Positions 16,637 to 59,508 of a DNA stretch of 64,000 bases are shown here, one piece after another (the first letter of the stretch is position 1; every line of letters starts with the position of its first letter). The notes below the pieces were generated by a model. It was not told where the DNA came from. It worked only from the letters and a program-made list of their open reading frames with translations, and did no database searches. A program made the translations under genes and the position numbers. Location: IMG/VR virus record IMGVR_UViG_3300035698_009139; one strand, given 5' to 3'. The stretch is from a virus.

Positions 16637-16644
16637 TATAAATA
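16637..16644 (+). promoter_or_regulatory. T4-type late promoter (gp22)
   Basis: TATAAATA; a second copy lies inside gp21 at 16539-16546. Confidence 0.85.
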
Positions 16645-17793: not shown

Positions 17794-17801
17794 TATAAAT
17801 A
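17794..17801 (+). promoter_or_regulatory. T4-type late promoter (gp23)
   Basis: TATAAATA upstream of gp23. Confidence 0.88.
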
Positions 17802-17837: not shown

Positions 17838-19226
17838 ATGGACATGAATAAGAGTCATCTAGAGCAGCTACAGGAAAAGTGGGACGGCGTTATCAATCAC
17901 GATGGCCTTCCTTCAATCGCCGACGGTCACCGCCGTTCAGTTTTGGCAACCCTTCTGGAAAACCAGGAATTGGATGCCCGTCAGCAAGCCGCTGGTTCAG
18001 GTGGATATGGCGCTCCAACGCTTTTGGGTGAGTCTTCACCTACAAATGCCATGGGTGCTTCTAGCTCCACAGCAGGCGACGGCGCAGTAGACATCTTCGA
18101 CCCCGTACTGATTTCACTTGTACGTCGTTCGATGCCTAACCTTGTTGCTTATGACCTTTGTGGCGTACAGCCAATGACAGGTCCAACCGGTCTTATCTTT
18201 GCCCTTCGTTCACGTTATACGAACCAGGCAGGAGCCGAAGCACTGTTCAACGAAGCCAATACTTCGTTTGCATCATCTGCTGCAGGCAACACAGCATCGA
18301 TTGGTGCTCGTGACGAAATCGGTACAAACGTTGGCCAGGTTGGTAATGATCCAACGGCACGCGCATTTGCTAACGGTTATTCAGTAGAACACGGCATGAC
18401 TACAGCTCAGGCTGAAGCACTTGGCGATGTGACAACGAATGGCTTCCAGGAAATGGCATTCAGCGTAGAGAAGGTTGCTGTAACAGCAGTATCCAAGGCT
18501 CTAAAGGCTGAGTACACGATGGAACTTGCACAGGACTTGAAAGCAGTTCACGGTCTTGACGCAGAGACAGAGCTTGCCAATATCCTTTCTGCTGAAATTC
18601 TTGCAGAAATCAACCGCGAAGTTGTTCGTACGATCAACTACACGGCTACAGCAGGCGCCCAGGAAAATGTAACAACGGCCGGCACGTTCGACCTTGATAC
18701 AGATTCGAACGGTCGTTGGATGGTAGAGCGCTTCAAGGGTCTTATCTTCCAGCTAGAGCGTGAATGTAACGCCATTGCCAAGGCGACCCGTCGAGGCAAG
18801 GGCAATGTGATGATCGTTGGTTCGGACGTCGCATCAGCACTTCACCTAGCAGGTGTTCTGGATTATACTCCAGCCCTAAACAACAACCTTCAGGTTGACG
18901 ACACAGGTAACACATTCGCTGGTGTTATGAATGGTCGCATTCGCGTTTACATCGATCCGTACTTCGCAAGTGCTTCAGGCAAGCAGTATGCAACACTTGG
19001 TTATAAGGGGTCTTCAGCCTTCGACGCCGGATTGTTCTACTGCCCTTACGTACCTCTACAGATGGTACGTGCCGTTGGCGAGAATACGTTCCAGCCAAAA
19101 ATCGGCTTCAAGACGCGATATGGCATCATCGCCAATCCTTTCGCAACGTCAGCAGCCGACGGAACGATCAGCTTCAACAACAAGAACGTTTATTACCGCT
19201 TCATGCAGATTTCGAACTTGATGTAA
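17838..19226 (+). CDS. gp23: Major capsid protein gp23
   Basis: LLENQE, LVRRSMPNLVAYDLCGVQPMTGPTGLIFALR, KALKAEYTMELAQDLKAVHGLDAE, TRRGKGN, FQPKIGFKTRYG. Confidence 0.98.
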   Translation: MDMNKSHLEQLQEKWDGVINHDGLPSIADGHRRSVLATLLENQELDARQQAAGSGGYGAPTLLGESSPTNAMGASSSTAGDGAVDIFDPVLISLVRRSMPNLVAYDLCGVQPMTGPTGLIFALRSRYTNQAGAEALFNEANTSFASSAAGNTASIGARDEIGTNVGQVGNDPTARAFANGYSVEHGMTTAQAEALGDVTTNGFQEMAFSVEKVAVTAVSKALKAEYTMELAQDLKAVHGLDAETELANILSAEILAEINREVVRTINYTATAGAQENVTTAGTFDLDTDSNGRWMVERFKGLIFQLERECNAIAKATRRGKGNVMIVGSDVASALHLAGVLDYTPALNNNLQVDDTGNTFAGVMNGRIRVYIDPYFASASGKQYATLGYKGSSAFDAGLFYCPYVPLQMVRAVGENTFQPKIGFKTRYGIIANPFATSAADGTISFNNKNVYYRFMQISNLM

Positions 19227-53592: not shown

Positions 53593-55380
53593 ATGCAGTA
53601 CGAAGGTATCGAGATCGATTTGTCTCGCGACGAACTATTTGACAAACTTGGCCTGATTCGCCTACAAGAATCATATATGAGAGACGACGAGACCAGCCCA
53701 CAGCATCGATTTGCATACGTGGCTAAACGATTCGGTACAGATATAGCACATTCGCAACGACTGTATGATTATATGTCGAAGCATTGGCTGTCGTGCAGCA
53801 CGCCTATTCTTAGTTACGGCCGCACGGAGCGCGGTCTGCCAATCAGTTGCTATCTAAATTACATTGACGATAGCTCGGCAGGATTGGTGGACACATTATC
53901 TGAGACCAACTGGCTTTCGATGCTCGGCGGAGGGGTTGGAATAGGTTTCGGTATGCGAGCGGCTGGCGAGAAGTCTACTGGCGTCATCCCACATCTTAAA
54001 CTGTATGATGCATCGTCTCTGGCTTATCGTCAAGGCAAAACGCGCCGCGGAAGTTATGCAGCATATCTAAACATCGACCATCCAGACATCACCCAGTTCC
54101 TCGAGATGCGTAAGTCCACGGGCGACCAAAACTTACGTTGCCTGAATCTCCATCACGGTATCAACATCTCCGATAAGTTCATGCAGATCATTGAGAATCT
54201 GATGACAGATCCGAATGCTGATGACACATGGAATCTGATTGACCCACACACCAATAGTGTGACGGAAGTAGTCAGCGCACGTGAGTTGTGGCAGAAGATC
54301 ATGGAATTGCGAATGCAGACCGGCGAACCTTATATGCATTTCATCGACACAAGTAACAAGCATTTACCGCAGTGGCTGAAGGACAGAGGCCTGGAAATAC
54401 GCCAGTCTAATCTGTGTAGTGAAATCATTCTGCCGACCAATGAAGACCGCACTGCAGTATGCTGCTTGAGTTCGCTGAATTTGGAACACTATGACGCGTG
54501 GCGCCGCAACCCTGGCTTCTTGCAGGACGTTGCTGAGATGTTGGACAATGTGCTGCAGTTTTTCATCGACACGGCTCCTGACACAATCAGCCGGGCTATC
54601 TATAGTGCAACACGTGAACGATCGATTGGTATTGGTGCCCTCGGCTTCCACGCATACCTGCAGAAGAATGGTATTCCGTTTGAGAGTGCGATGGCTAAGT
54701 CTGCTAACATCCGTTTATTCAAATACATCCGCACATCACTGGATGCAGCCAATCTTGTGTTGGGCAAGGAACGCGGTGAGGCACCAGACGCAGAGGGAAC
54801 AGGCCTGCGGTTCAGTCATTTGATGGCAATCGCTCCGAACGCATCATCGTCAATTATCATGGGCAACACATCGCCTTCGATTGAACCATATCGGGCTAAT
54901 GCATATCGTCAGGATACATTGTCCGGATCTCATATGAATAAGAATCGCCACTTGGATGCACTGATCAAAAAGCATTGTGAGGGTGATACGGCAATGTATG
55001 ATCGAATTTGGTCGTCGATCATTTCTAATGACGGTAGCTGTCAGCACTTGTCGTGGATGGAAGATTACGACAAAGATGTATATAAGACAGCAATGGAAAT
55101 CGATCAGCGCTGGGTGATAGAACATGCAGCAACCAGGCAGCAATGGATCGATCAAGCACAGTCATTGAACTTATTCTTTCGGCCGGACAGCAACATCAAG
55201 TATTTACATGCGTGCCATTTTCTCGCTTGGAAATCTGGACTAAAGACGCTATACTATTGTAGGTCAGAGAAAATCGGTAAGGCCGATAAGGTCGCAAAGA
55301 AGATCGAGCGACAAATCATCAAAGAATTAGATTTTGAAGCAATCATCGCAGGTGATGATTGCATAGCATGTGAGGGATAA
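53593..55380 (+). CDS. nrdA: Ribonucleotide reductase class I alpha subunit (short, no ATP cone)
   Basis: STPIL, PISC, GGGVG, QSNLCSEI, VCCLSS, RSIGIG, IAPNASSS, DQAQS, LKTLYY, C-terminal CIACEG. Confidence 0.96.
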   Translation: MQYEGIEIDLSRDELFDKLGLIRLQESYMRDDETSPQHRFAYVAKRFGTDIAHSQRLYDYMSKHWLSCSTPILSYGRTERGLPISCYLNYIDDSSAGLVDTLSETNWLSMLGGGVGIGFGMRAAGEKSTGVIPHLKLYDASSLAYRQGKTRRGSYAAYLNIDHPDITQFLEMRKSTGDQNLRCLNLHHGINISDKFMQIIENLMTDPNADDTWNLIDPHTNSVTEVVSARELWQKIMELRMQTGEPYMHFIDTSNKHLPQWLKDRGLEIRQSNLCSEIILPTNEDRTAVCCLSSLNLEHYDAWRRNPGFLQDVAEMLDNVLQFFIDTAPDTISRAIYSATRERSIGIGALGFHAYLQKNGIPFESAMAKSANIRLFKYIRTSLDAANLVLGKERGEAPDAEGTGLRFSHLMAIAPNASSSIIMGNTSPSIEPYRANAYRQDTLSGSHMNKNRHLDALIKKHCEGDTAMYDRIWSSIISNDGSCQHLSWMEDYDKDVYKTAMEIDQRWVIEHAATRQQWIDQAQSLNLFFRPDSNIKYLHACHFLAWKSGLKTLYYCRSEKIGKADKVAKKIERQIIKELDFEAIIAGDDCIACEG

Positions 55381-55382
55381 TT

Positions 55383-55964
55383 ATGAATTTTCTACCAATA
55401 CAGAAGATGTCGGCTGATAAACTGGTTTTTGCTATGTGTGCTAAATATGCTAAACCTAACGGTCTTGGCTTCTCTATAGAGAAGCATGAGGTGGGGCTAG
55501 ACGTTGAAGCCAATATGTCGAAAGCCGTATCCCAATTGATGCAAGAAAAGTTTGAAATGTTGGACCGGCCAGTTGATATGAAGTGGAACCCACCACATCA
55601 CAACAAATGGCAGAAGATCATCCGCATCATTCGAGGCACAGGAGATGATATACATCCACTTAATCATGCCATACACCGCGCGGGCAACAAAATTGCGAAG
55701 CGGACACGAAGGGGTATAGGTAATGTGTTGATTTATAATCCGGGTTGGACACATTACGGAATGGAATCCTCTCTGACTGGCACCCCGGTCACAAAGATCC
55801 GCCACCCACTATGCCCTCTTGATAAAATGCTCTTGTTGTATATGGGAGAGAATGATTTCGATGCTGGTTATATGTACGTGGAAGGAAGTGGGTTGTTTAA
55901 GCAACCTGATAGATTTTGCAAAGCAGAAGATTATGGCATGTGGATCCAGCTAGACAATGGTTGA
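55383..55964 (+). CDS. Miniaturised gp23 (major capsid protein) paralogue
   Basis: Six blocks collinear with this phage's gp23, e.g. NKIAKRTRRGIGNVLI vs NAIAKATRRGKGNVMI and YMGENDFDAGYMY vs YKGSSAFDAGLFY. Confidence 0.75.
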   Translation: MNFLPIQKMSADKLVFAMCAKYAKPNGLGFSIEKHEVGLDVEANMSKAVSQLMQEKFEMLDRPVDMKWNPPHHNKWQKIIRIIRGTGDDIHPLNHAIHRAGNKIAKRTRRGIGNVLIYNPGWTHYGMESSLTGTPVTKIRHPLCPLDKMLLLYMGENDFDAGYMYVEGSGLFKQPDRFCKAEDYGMWIQLDNG

Positions 55965-56547
55965 AATTATTTGGCATCAAAACCCGCTGAGATCAGAAGT
56001 GCTTCTGAACGACAACGACAAGCAGTTGCTCTGGCATAAAGTTAAGATCGAGGAATTGCTGAATGGCATGTGCGGGGCTCACATGTATATACAAGATGCC
56101 CTCAAATCACGTTGGTGGGTACCTGCAGGTATCATAAAGAAGGCCCTCAAAGAGCTGGATTATACTGATGCGATCGATGCCGAAGTTGATCGAATGACAG
56201 AAGTGTGCATCCAAGACTTGAGGGGATGGCATATGGGAGATTGCACTTGTTTCGCAAACAGCTGTGCAAAGTGTCATGCCGAACACATGCTAGGAATTGA
56301 CACCATTAAAGGCTTAGGGAAACATGCTGGGTCCTATGTGTCGTCAGCATTCGACAGCACTGTGCTTGGCGCCCCTGAGCGTACGACTGCTGAGGCGATC
56401 GACGTGTTGATAAATCGAGACGACTCCGAGAAAACGGACACATGGTCTAATTATTCTGATGAGCAATGGGATAAATTAGTTGCCCGATGGAACGGGGAAC
56501 GCAAAGAGGCAATTAAATGGTTAAAGGTCTATCAAGCAAATCTTTAG
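55957..56547 (+). CDS. Hypothetical protein with a His/Cys cluster
   Basis: HMGDCTCFANSCAKCHAE. Confidence 0.65.
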   Translation: MVEIIWHQNPLRSEVLLNDNDKQLLWHKVKIEELLNGMCGAHMYIQDALKSRWWVPAGIIKKALKELDYTDAIDAEVDRMTEVCIQDLRGWHMGDCTCFANSCAKCHAEHMLGIDTIKGLGKHAGSYVSSAFDSTVLGAPERTTAEAIDVLINRDDSEKTDTWSNYSDEQWDKLVARWNGERKEAIKWLKVYQANL

Positions 56548-56549
56548 TA

Positions 56550-56777
56550 ATGCCCGTGTGTGACACTAAACGTCACTTGGTGTGCTACCCATACAATAAA
56601 CAAAACCTGCATTTAATGGCCAAGGTTATGGGCATAGGCCGACACTGGTTTCACAAAGACCACTATGATATACCGAAAAGACGGCGACCAGAAATAGAAT
56701 CTAAATGCTTCAAGGTGAGTAGCAAAGAGATCGTACAAATAATAAAAGGCGGAGAGCTAGAATGGCTAAAGATCTAA
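56550..56777 (+). CDS. DUF4031-like small protein
   Basis: LHLMAKVMGIGRHWFHKDHYDIPKRRR. Confidence 0.6.
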   Translation: MPVCDTKRHLVCYPYNKQNLHLMAKVMGIGRHWFHKDHYDIPKRRRPEIESKCFKVSSKEIVQIIKGGELEWLKI

Positions 56778-57733
56778 AACTAACAGACGAACGCAATTAC
56801 TTTAAGCCATTCCATTATCCTTGGGCGTACGATGCATGGTTAATGCACGAGCAAAGTCACTGGTTGCACACGGAAGTTCCTATGCTGGATGACGTCAAAG
56901 ACTGGCGCCTGCGTCTGTCAGATGCTGAGAAGCATTTCCTAACTCAGATCTTCCGCTTCTTCACTCAGGGTGATATTGACGTAGCTGATGGGTACGTCAA
57001 TAATTTTCTGCCGTACTTCCCGCAGCCAGAAGTCCGTATGATGCTCGTAGGGTTCGCTGCACGAGAAGCTCTGCATATTGCTGCATACAGCCACCTAATC
57101 GAAACATTGGGAATGCCAGAAAGCACGTACAGTGAGTTCTCCGAATACAAGGAGATGCAGAACAAGCACGATTACATTCAGAAGCTAAGTGGTAAGAGCG
57201 CCAAGAATGTGGCGCAACAGATTGCAGCGTTCTCAGCATTCACAGAAGGGATGCAACTGTTCAGCTCATTCATCATGCTGCTGAATTTTCCTCGCCACGG
57301 CAAGATGAAGGGTATGGGGCAAATCATCACTTGGTCAATCGTTGATGAGACGATGCACGCCGAGTCAATGATCAAGCTGTTCCGAACATTCATTGAAGAG
57401 AATAAAGATATTTGGAACGACGAGCTGAAAGGCGAGATCTACTCCATTGCAGAGAAAATGGTCAGCCTGGAAGACGAGTTCATCGACCTAGCATTCAAGA
57501 TGGGGTCGGTGGAGAATCTGACGGCCGATGAAGTCAAGAAGTACATCAGGTACATCGCCGACCGTCGATTGATTTCACTGGGGATGAAAGGCATCTTCCA
57601 CGTAAGAACGAACCCGTTGCCATGGGTTGAAACAATGATTAATGCACCCACGCATACGAACTTCTTTGAGAACAGGGCAACGGATTATGCTAAGGGTGCG
57701 TTGGAAGGTGACTGGGGAGAGGTGTGGGCGTAA
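56762..57733 (+). CDS. nrdB: Ribonucleotide reductase class Ia beta subunit
   Basis: FFTQGD, REALH..AY (radical Tyr), EGMQLFSSF, DETMH, YIADRRL, NFFENRATDY. Confidence 0.96.
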   Translation: MAKDLKLTDERNYFKPFHYPWAYDAWLMHEQSHWLHTEVPMLDDVKDWRLRLSDAEKHFLTQIFRFFTQGDIDVADGYVNNFLPYFPQPEVRMMLVGFAAREALHIAAYSHLIETLGMPESTYSEFSEYKEMQNKHDYIQKLSGKSAKNVAQQIAAFSAFTEGMQLFSSFIMLLNFPRHGKMKGMGQIITWSIVDETMHAESMIKLFRTFIEENKDIWNDELKGEIYSIAEKMVSLEDEFIDLAFKMGSVENLTADEVKKYIRYIADRRLISLGMKGIFHVRTNPLPWVETMINAPTHTNFFENRATDYAKGALEGDWGEVWA

Positions 57734-57978
57734 GACATTTTGTAAAGTGGCCGCTTAGATTATTCGTTTGGAAGTGGTCTGCTCTTCTTTTAAAACTAGC
57801 AGGGTTCCCTTCTCTTTTAACTAGATATAAAATTGCGAAGGTGCGGAGAGATTTCATGCGCGGACTGCGCAGAGTGTATCCCGGCCTGGTTGCTGAAGAA
57901 TTGATAGGTGTTCAACCAATGACAAAGGATGCCGGCCAAATATTTACAATGAGGGTTAAAAACAATGTACGTGATTAA
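57724..57978 (+). CDS. Small protein carrying a gp23 Gol-region homologue
   Basis: LRRVYPGLVAEELIGVQPMTKDAGQIFTMR vs gp23 VRRSMPNLVAYDLCGVQPMTGPTGLIFALR; alternative start ATG 57856 with SD GGAGA. Confidence 0.7.
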   Translation: MGVRHFVKWPLRLFVWKWSALLLKLAGFPSLLTRYKIAKVRRDFMRGLRRVYPGLVAEELIGVQPMTKDAGQIFTMRVKNNVRD

Positions 57979-59061: not shown

Positions 59062-59508
59062 GTGAGTTACGACAACCCTTGGACGTTTAATGGACAACTT
59101 TTTGACACAGATCAGATCAACAAATCCGAAGGATTCGTTTATATGGTCATCAACCAGCAGACGGGCCAAAAATACATCGGGCGAAAATACTTCTTTGAAA
59201 TACGAAAGGTTCGTGGTAAGCTACGACGTCAACGTAGAGAAAGCAATTGGAAATCTTACTACGGCTCAAGTGAACGCATTAAAGCTGATATCGAAGAGAT
59301 TGGACGAGAAGCTTTCTTACGCACTATACTATCCATACACAAGACACGAGGCGACTGCAACTATGCCGAGGTACGAGAACAATTTTCTCACAACGTGTTG
59401 GAATCCGAAGGCTACTACAACGACAACATATCAGGCAAGTGGCATAATAAACCTCTGCATATCATAGAAGGAAGACGTATATCTAATGGATCAATCTTCA
59501 TTACCTGA
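59062..59508 (+). CDS. GIY-YIG family endonuclease (endonuclease II/DenA-like)
   Basis: GFVYMVIN...KYIGRKYF, ESNWKSYYGSS, YYNDNISG. Confidence 0.75.
   Translation: MSYDNPWTFNGQLFDTDQINKSEGFVYMVINQQTGQKYIGRKYFFEIRKVRGKLRRQRRESNWKSYYGSSERIKADIEEIGREAFLRTILSIHKTRGDCNYAEVREQFSHNVLESEGYYNDNISGKWHNKPLHIIEGRRISNGSIFIT

Follow-up and report, generated by a model that had tools for sequence, protein, structure and literature searches.

A minimal HK97-fold homologue of the T4-type major capsid protein encoded between nrdA and nrdB in a phage genome

The gene in the nrdA-nrdB slot

This work concerns a small gene, mini-gp23, in a 64,000-nucleotide stretch of DNA from a T4-like phage (IMG/VR virus record IMGVR_UViG_3300035698_009139; the whole stretch is called the window). 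Mini-gp23 (55383..55964, plus strand, 193 codons plus stop) is an open reading frame (ORF) for a predicted minimal HK97-fold paralogue of gp23, the T4-type major capsid protein. In what follows, P-numbers denote proteins and L-numbers loci of this analysis, P0001 being the protein of the window. The gene is flanked on the left by nrdA (53593..55380, plus strand, 595 amino acids, Pfam Ribonuc_red_lgC E 4e-109) and on the right by nrdB (56762..57733, plus strand, 323 amino acids, Pfam Ribonuc_red_sm E 1e-77). Its ATG lies 2 nucleotides past the nrdA stop codon (55378-55380), and a Shine-Dalgarno-like GAGGGA (55372..55377, plus strand), read off the sequence, is located inside the last nrdA codons, 5 nucleotides ahead of the ATG, an arrangement in which translation of mini-gp23 is probably coupled to that of nrdA. 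The mini-gp23 stop codon overlaps the start (55957) of the following ORF, which encodes a Cys-rich polypeptide of 196 amino acids with no detectable family (55957-56547, plus strand) and is followed in the same slot by the gene of a DUF4031 protein of 86 amino acids (56517-56777, plus strand, DUF4031 E 4e-10); both of these also overlap their neighbours. The composition of mini-gp23 is typical of the genome, with a guanine plus cytosine fraction of 0.44 (0.46 at third codon positions) against a window mean of 0.46. P0001 was called letter for letter on two metagenome contigs, and the phage that carries it was detected in four DNA metagenomes of salt-lake origin, where its depth was low and the gene showed zero variants. 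Mini-gp23 is a real gene which encodes a cut-down, collinear homologue of gp23.

The true major capsid protein gp23 of this phage (462 amino acids, Pfam Gp23 468 bits) is encoded 36 kb away, at 17838..19226 (plus strand), after gp21 and gp22 and with the late-promoter motif TATAAATA at 17794; mini-gp23 thus sits outside the head module. This motif, known from T4, occurs 12 times where 2.1 copies are expected (for example at 16637, 17794, 19280, 43293, 44489 and 47878), mostly directly upstream of ORFs of the head and tail block such as those for gp22 and gp23, so the phage seems to use T4-like late transcription. A motif scan found no copy of it between 47886 and 58668, the stretch that contains mini-gp23, and from the primase gene (51909) to the dCMP deaminase gene (59001) the genes overlap or are separated by gaps of at most 6 nucleotides. 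Because the late-promoter motif is absent here and the genes are tightly packed, we infer that mini-gp23 shares its transcript with the genes of nucleotide metabolism and precedes the late genes in expression.

For comparison, 80 related viral contigs (L131-L210) were collected in which nrdB is 77-82% identical; in 68 of them nrdA is also visible, and among these 68 the distance between nrdA and nrdB varies from 14 to 3897 bp, with different cargo. Neither mini-gp23 nor the 196-amino acid ORF, the DUF4031 protein or the 84-amino acid gp23 piece described below is encoded by any of the 80 loci. The nrdA-nrdB junction is a variable insertion slot, and mini-gp23, being absent from the 80 related loci, is an accessory gene, in agreement with the preliminary description of the locus, which spoke of an insertion between nrdA and nrdB. 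In T4-like phages, mobile and accessory genes are known to gather preferentially at the nrd, td and frd junctions. Given the apparent co-transcription and translational coupling, it is likely that this accessory gene is expressed before the late genes and that its product is no building block of the virion.

Two other features of the operon were recorded. An ORF of 84 amino acids (57724-57978, plus strand) overlaps the end of nrdB and includes the gp23 N-arm region in well-conserved form, its residues 47-77 matching gp23 residues 94-124. With a Pfam Gp23 score of 36.9 bits, above the cut-off, and a tblastn E value of 2e-5, it is a second gp23-derived piece in the operon; in T4 the matched gp23 region contains the Gol peptide. 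A gene for a SegE-like GIY-YIG homing endonuclease (Pfam PF19835, approximately 59062-59508, plus strand) is located about 3 kb downstream of mini-gp23.

Relationship to gp23 and predicted fold

The gene had been described as carrying six ordered blocks that match the gp23 of the same phage. Block 4, with the sequence TRRGxGN, is the sole block that BLASTP detects against this gp23 (E 7e-5, 13/21 identical). The score of P0001 against the Pfam family PF07068 (Gp23) is 22.9 bits (E 6.7e-5), covers residues 86-120 only and stays under the 24.4-bit gathering score, which is exceeded by the relatives P0009 (39.2 bits) and P0008 (29.8 bits). In a chained alignment with cheap gap extension, scored against shuffled sequences, the six-block collinear chain between mini-gp23 and the phage's own gp23 reached z = 8.5 (300 shuffles). 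With block 4 removed, the N-terminal part of the chain gave z = 2.8 (7 of 500 shuffles equal or better) and the C-terminal part z = 1.45 (41 of 500), and crossed controls for these two parts were negative.

Homology is decisively shown by the relatives, since the profile of the mini family matches a profile of 13 diverse gp23 proteins (hhalign, 98%, E 1.9e-13), with mini positions 77-168 aligned to gp23 297-404, that is, over blocks 4 and 5; in global mode the E value is 1.3e-15, and the family profile also matches the solved T4 gp23 (E 4e-5). Taken by themselves, the first 76 residues match the gp23 profile best in the GVQPM...FALR region (E 0.0086), and the C-terminal tail weakly matches the extreme C-terminus of gp23 (E 0.33). 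When members were compared separately with the gp23 hidden Markov model (HMM), all 12 of 12 matched at block 4, 8 of 12 had a second collinear match at block 5 (profile positions 372-396), and in 5 of 12 the best N-terminal match fell in the block 1 region (88-129). Blocks 1 and 2 are clearer in the relatives phiN3 gp2 and P0003. The six-block description therefore stands to a different degree for its parts: block 4 is significant by itself, block 5 by profile and blocks 1 and 2 through relatives, while blocks 3 and 6 have their support in collinearity and the structure model. The part of the claim that concerned the phage's own gp23 did not hold, because the likeness is to gp23 in general: the chain score of mini-gp23 against its own gp23 is 145, and against other gp23 proteins 119-172.

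Residues R110, G111, G113 and N114 are invariant across the mini family and have counterparts (T317, G320, G322 and N323) that are invariant in gp23; Y153 and D160 of block 5 (YxGxxxxDxG) are conserved in the family as well. RRGxGN and YxGxxxxDxG are the two most conserved motifs of gp23, and both are kept in the mini core.

An AlphaFold2 (AF2) model of P0001 was built on a 12-sequence family alignment and has a predicted local distance difference test score (pLDDT) of 80.1 and a predicted template modelling score of 0.77. AF2 run on the single sequence was uninformative (pLDDT 29.8), and the own ESM Atlas entry for P0001 has a pLDDT of 0.31, the feature search yielding only clusters at or below 0.86. 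The model, with all elements encoded on the plus strand, starts with a short strand and a beta-hairpin (14-23/27-36), which correspond to gp23 blocks 1 and 2 (residues 3-36, 55389..55490; chain alignment, profile and model) and in which a 3-residue turn takes the place of the gp23 insertion domain of ca. 80 amino acids. A short helix follows at the position of the long spine helix of gp23, in the block 3 region (residues 45-61, 55515..55565), with a pLDDT of about 90 and weak sequence support of its own. A length-variable linker, gap-rich in the family alignment and with pLDDT below 50 (residues 72-89, 55596..55649), leads to block 4 (residues 92-118, 55656..55736; BLASTP, Pfam Gp23 positions 217-251), which comprises an A-domain helix (92-108) running into the invariant RRGxGN loop and a central strand (114-118). 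Next come short helices (120-130) and four strands, block 5 (residues 148-167, 55824..55883, within the hhalign match) being modelled as a strand, the YxGxxxxDxG turn and a strand. The chain ends with a helix and a strand in block 6 (residues 181-193, 55923..55961; DYGxxIxL in the family, model, and the weak C-terminal gp23 match given above).

In a structural search that was independent of Foldseek, 48,161 solved chains were screened for similarity to the model. The top 50 were all HK97-fold capsid proteins or encapsulins (Z 6.5-10.2, spanning model residues 1-193), the best being 3bjq (Z 10.2) and T4 gp24 (1yue, Z 9.2, 172 residues aligned). Against T4 gp23 (6uzc, residues 107-521) the match was collinear over the full model, with Z 9.0, 173 of 193 residues aligned and a root mean square deviation of 3.8 Å. 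Foldseek against the PDB gave E values of 1e-4 to 3e-4, and its PDB and BFVD results agree with the HK97 fold; in the ESM Atlas, a Gp23 cluster comes closest in shape (TM score 0.69, 176 aligned). The solved chains on the structure-match lists all have at least 228 residues, so the 193-residue model is shorter than every one of them. A homotrimer prediction (three copies, family alignment) had a score of 0.00 and is evidence in neither direction. Chance similarity was rejected on the grounds of the chain z of 8.5, the hhalign E value of 1.9e-13 and the exclusive structural matches to HK97-fold proteins. In the model the spine helix, A-domain and E-loop-type hairpin appear in the canonical HK97 order, and the mini keeps what the model presents as a complete minimal HK97 core of hairpin (14-36), short spine helix (45-61), A-domain (92-153) and C-terminal strands. 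The earlier idea of an A-domain-centred fold is thus right as to the A-domain and too narrow as to the rest of this core.

What the mini lacks was for the most part correctly recognised before. Its N-terminus corresponds to about gp23 residue 105, so that the propeptide and also the N-arm are absent. The ca. 80 amino acids between gp23 blocks 1 and 2, which form the insertion domain, are missing, as are a segment before block 3, the initial half of the spine helix and a number of long loops. The T4 insertion domain is located at the tip of the E-loop-equivalent linkers, atop the neighbouring subunit which it clamps, and the N-terminal region 66-105 of gp23 contributes to inter-subunit stabilisation (PMC9546572). 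Because the insertion domain and the N-arm make inter-subunit contacts in T4 and are absent from the mini, we consider the interlocking parts to have been pruned, as proposed earlier for the lattice contacts.

The A domains, which the mini retains, form the capsomer core in T4 (PMC9546572). This, together with the fact that the most conserved gp23 motifs, located in the A-domain, are common to both proteins, could mean that mini-gp23 is a head-assembly factor which binds gp23 via the A-domain face and acts as a cap, a chaperone, a modulator of head size or shape, or a minor vertex-type subunit. No gp24 homologue was found in the window (a search of gp23 against its six-frame translation finds the mini and the 84-amino acid piece only), one relative of the mini is encoded directly after gp13- and gp14-like neck genes, and the capsid-protein homologue Ccm of SaPIbov5, which redirects the helper capsid (PMC8569155), offers a precedent. 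We nevertheless regard a role in head assembly as rather unlikely. The gene lacks the late-promoter motif and lies within a nucleotide-metabolism operon, all elements that clamp neighbouring subunits are deleted, and members with a twin-arginine signal (see below) would not encounter gp23. Neither the 80 close relatives nor the 50,697 phage records searched by tblastn contain the gene, which speaks against a core head component. As a substitute for gp24 the mini was rejected, since it is not conserved in relatives.

Members of the family, their origin and their neighbours

When 1.8 billion representative proteins were searched exhaustively with HMMER, nine small relatives of P0001 were retrieved (163-317 amino acids, E 2.5e-8 to 7e-4), to which P0011, P0012, P0015 and, from a cultured phage, phiN3 gp2 were added later. 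The family is rare, with about 15 proteins of 149-317 amino acids. Its members are 14-32% identical to P0001, yet they have the same ends and motifs and intact reading frames and occur in unrelated phages. P0001 is absent from the PHROGs and NCBIfam families, and a word-indexed search of 5.8 billion proteins returned P0001 alone. Among the 50,697 phage records, tblastn with P0001, P0005 and P0007 gave zero matches and with P0002 weak matches to true gp23 genes only. A DNA pattern scan for RRGxGN...YNP yielded 0 matches and then 1 chance match in IMG/VR, and 111 matches in JGI metagenomes, of which 0 were family members by HMM. We found no published description of such gp23-derived mini proteins in the literature, and the family represents a miniaturised, probably non-structural branch of the gp23/HK97 family.

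The member from a cultured phage, phiN3 gp2 (PHIN3_2, 149 amino acids, annotated as hypothetical), is encoded by Sinorhizobium phage phiN3 (KR052482; L214/L216, 809-1258, minus strand), where it adjoins a tRNA-His guanylyltransferase gene at the genome end. Its membership follows from the family model (E 8.6e-6), from hhalign (89%, E 2.3e-6) and from a structural match in BFVD. It retains all six blocks, and unlike P0001 it is shorter and located outside an nrd operon. No second occurrence of it was found among deposited phages.

In a tree of the shared A-domain region, all 13 minis fall on one side of a single branch, supported at 99/99, and all 14 gp23 proteins on the other. The tree is based on 108 columns, has long branches and is unrooted; four gp23 rows were shortened by a motif rule, and three rows (P0015, P0026 and the gp23 from L124) were excluded for a missing motif match. 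Because P0001 shows no special likeness to its own gp23 and because of the 99/99 branch, the mini is, as far as such comparisons indicate, a member of an old separate family that split off from the T4-type major capsid proteins. A recent duplication of the phage's own gp23 was rejected on the same evidence, the chain score of 145 lying within 119-172. We hold it to be very probable that mini-gp23 is a functional gene and that its product, a soluble protein with a minimal HK97 fold, belongs to this old, sporadic family of 149-317 amino acids.

The same observations bear on the notion that mini-gp23 is a functionless relic, either a decaying duplicate of a capsid gene or a fragment brought in by a homing endonuclease that has stayed open by chance. 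Such an origin would fit a hypervariable slot, the SegE-like endonuclease gene some 3 kb away, the second gp23-derived piece directly after nrdB and the lack of close relatives of mini-gp23 among the phage records and the 5.8 billion proteins. It is very improbable because the family is conserved and the fold confidently predicted: ends, motifs and frames persist in unrelated phages at 14-32% identity, and the family alignment yields a compact model. Moreover, the gene has a good ribosome-binding site and a genome-typical composition, its own gp23 is not the closest one, and P0007 and P0009 were kept in one and the same slot. These two minis share the position between the genes of dihydrofolate reductase (DHFR) and thymidylate synthase; they are 47% identical, compared with 70% for ThyA, and their nonsynonymous divergence (dN) is 0.50, compared with 0.27 for ThyA, the synonymous divergence being saturated. 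In this lineage the mini has been retained over time despite 53% divergence.

Five members, P0003, P0008, P0011, P0012 and P0015 (loci L003, L130 and L217), form a branch of the family in which the N-terminus has a twin-arginine motif followed by hydrophobic residues and an Ala-rich cleavage region; their conserved domain begins, after the twin-arginine segment, where the other members begin. P0003 is the sole member to score against signal models, at 14.6 with Pfam TAT_signal (cut-off 22.7) and 14.8 with TIGR01409 (cut-off 16.7). P0001 has no N-terminus of the S/T-R-R-x-F type. Judged by these N-termini, the five proteins are probably exported to the periplasm by the twin-arginine translocation (Tat) route.

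The genomic settings of the family vary. The order DHFR-mini-ThyA with overlapping start and stop codons is found in the uncultured phages of L211 (5581-7515) and L129 (3-1310), and in L217 the mini is followed by two genes and ThyX. One member lies downstream of an RNase T-like gene, one follows the gp13- and gp14-like genes in a neck/tail module, one is found in a syntenic neighbour region, and one shares an accessory region with Apyc1-like and Gad2-like genes. Homologues of the 196-amino acid ORF and of the DUF4031 gene were not found beside other mini family members.

That three sub-lineages are located in or beside genes for deoxynucleoside triphosphate (dNTP) synthesis, with overlapping codons (nrdA-mini-...-nrdB, DHFR-mini-ThyA and mini-two genes-ThyX), may point to an enzyme-associated HK97 scaffold that binds or organises ribonucleotide reductase, thymidylate synthase and DHFR. 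An analogy exists in the A-domain encapsulins, truncated HK97 proteins that are paired with enzymes such as DeoC and GAPDH (bioRxiv 10.1101/2021.03.18.436031). A scaffold is nonetheless improbable, as the remaining members are found elsewhere (neck module, accessory region, tRNA-His guanylyltransferase gene, RNase T-like gene), the nrd, td and frd junctions attract accessory genes in any case, with a gap between nrdA and nrdB of anything from 14 to 3897 bp, and the same enzymes work without a mini in close relatives. A literature search found no link between gp23 and the dNTP synthetase complex, and the Tat-type members speak against an enzyme partner in the cytoplasm.

A possible capsid-core mimic and its place among HK97-fold proteins

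The explanation that we favour overall, at somewhat less than an even chance, is that mini-gp23 is a soluble, non-virion mimic of the capsid core. The mini has lost what locks gp23 into capsomers and lattice (propeptide, N-arm, insertion domain, half of the spine helix and long loops) and would be made before the late head genes, together with the nucleotide-metabolism genes. It would then display the conserved face of the gp23 A-domain to the usual binding partners of that face. For the cytoplasmic members, P0001 included, the likeliest target would be a capsid-sensing host protein comparable to Avs7/8/10, CapRel or Lit. Being unable to enter the shell, the mini would leave head assembly undisturbed. 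We prefer this explanation because the most conserved face of gp23 is kept while locking into a lattice is precluded, because the family is sporadic, fast-evolving (the dN of 0.50 against 0.27 given above) and probably early, and because bacterial sensors of the HK97 fold are now known, Avs7/8/10 wrapping around this fold and contacting the conserved face of its A-domain (bioRxiv 10.64898/2026.01.04.697583). The member whose accessory region includes Apyc1-like and Gad2-like genes was also counted in its favour.

Several points weigh against this explanation, and the more specific proposition that the mini acts by imitating the core of the unassembled capsid protein is accordingly put forward as tentative. 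The AF2 model was built from no more than 12 sequences, and its confidence is poor at residues 60-63 and 72-89. Early expression is deduced from promoter motifs and gene packing only. A decoy role in the cytoplasm cannot explain the five probably exported members, one member is located in a neck and tail module, and the three independent lineages in or beside dNTP-synthesis genes may indicate another role. Finally, a literature search found no description of a phage-encoded mimic of a capsid protein as an immune decoy, and a faithful mimic of the trigger might activate a sensor instead of blocking it.

Tailed phages, herpesviruses and encapsulins all make their shells from proteins of the HK97 fold, and to our knowledge nearly all uses of this fold consist in the building of closed shells. 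Compared with T4 gp23 (PF07068; PDB 5VF3, 6UZC, 7VRT) and gp24 (1YUE), the mini is alike in sequence (for gp23, the hhalign match described above), in the RRGxGN and YxGxxxxDxG motifs and in the order of HK97 elements (Z 9.0 and 9.2, respectively). It differs from both in size, 193 amino acids as compared with 462 for the gp23 of the same phage and 427 for T4 gp24 (under half the size of gp24, as had been stated), and in the absence of propeptide, N-arm and insertion domain. It is further unlike gp23 in its shortened spine helix and loops, its location outside the head module, the lack of a late-promoter motif, its accessory character and the 99/99 split in the tree, and unlike a gp24-type vertex protein in that it has no insertion domain, is not beside g23 and is absent from both the 80 loci and the 50,697 phage records.

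A heavily truncated, free-standing HK97 derivative near enzyme genes is also represented by the Family 4 A-domain encapsulins (PF08967, DUF1884; PDB 2PK8). These proteins of about 100 amino acids consist of the A-domain only and are encoded in two-gene enzyme operons (Andreas and Giessen, bioRxiv 10.1101/2021.03.18.436031); they are cellular genes of hyperthermophilic archaea and a few Bacteroidetes (bioRxiv 10.1101/2021.03.18.436031). The mini family, in contrast, has 149-317 amino acids, adds the hairpin, spine helix and C-terminal strands, is derived from gp23 and is carried by phages, and P0001 gave no match to DUF1884 at E <= 1. Another paralogue of a capsid protein with a task other than the main shell is Ccm of SaPIbov5, the structure of which (PDB 7RWZ) matches the model with Z 7.7. 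Ccm is a full-size HK97 protein that a satellite encodes and that becomes part of the capsid, whereas the mini has lost the interlocking parts and is the phage's own gene.

A free-standing HK97 protein of half the usual size, without the interlocking parts and conserved in several phage lineages, would demonstrate a second, non-shell use of the fold, and it would also define the minimum that is sufficient for it. If the mini does imitate unassembled capsid protein, it bears on how phages deal with the newly found bacterial capsid sensors. Members are repeatedly placed in nucleotide operons and some have export signals, and phiN3 gp2 provides a member in a cultured phage with a tractable host (Sinorhizobium). 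A more comprehensive proposal, in which the minis of 149-193 amino acids are the smallest complete HK97 folds, incompetent for shell formation and early, serve as mimics that blunt immune sensors or as organisers of dNTP-synthesis enzymes, and include a Tat branch redeployed to the periplasm, is doubtful as a whole.

A separate protein annotated as a capsid protein was noted in Pseudomonas phage Lu11. The model of the capsid family matched the capsid gene and gp106 only in this genome, with no match between the genes of thymidylate synthase and DHFR. Its gp106 (L225, 2978-3841, minus strand, 287 amino acids) carries the annotation 'major head protein' and its similarity to phrog_2522, the capsid family of the Lu11 type, is confined to two short stretches (E 8e-8 and 2e-6); its gene is distant from the full-length capsid gene at 37.5-38.5 kb.

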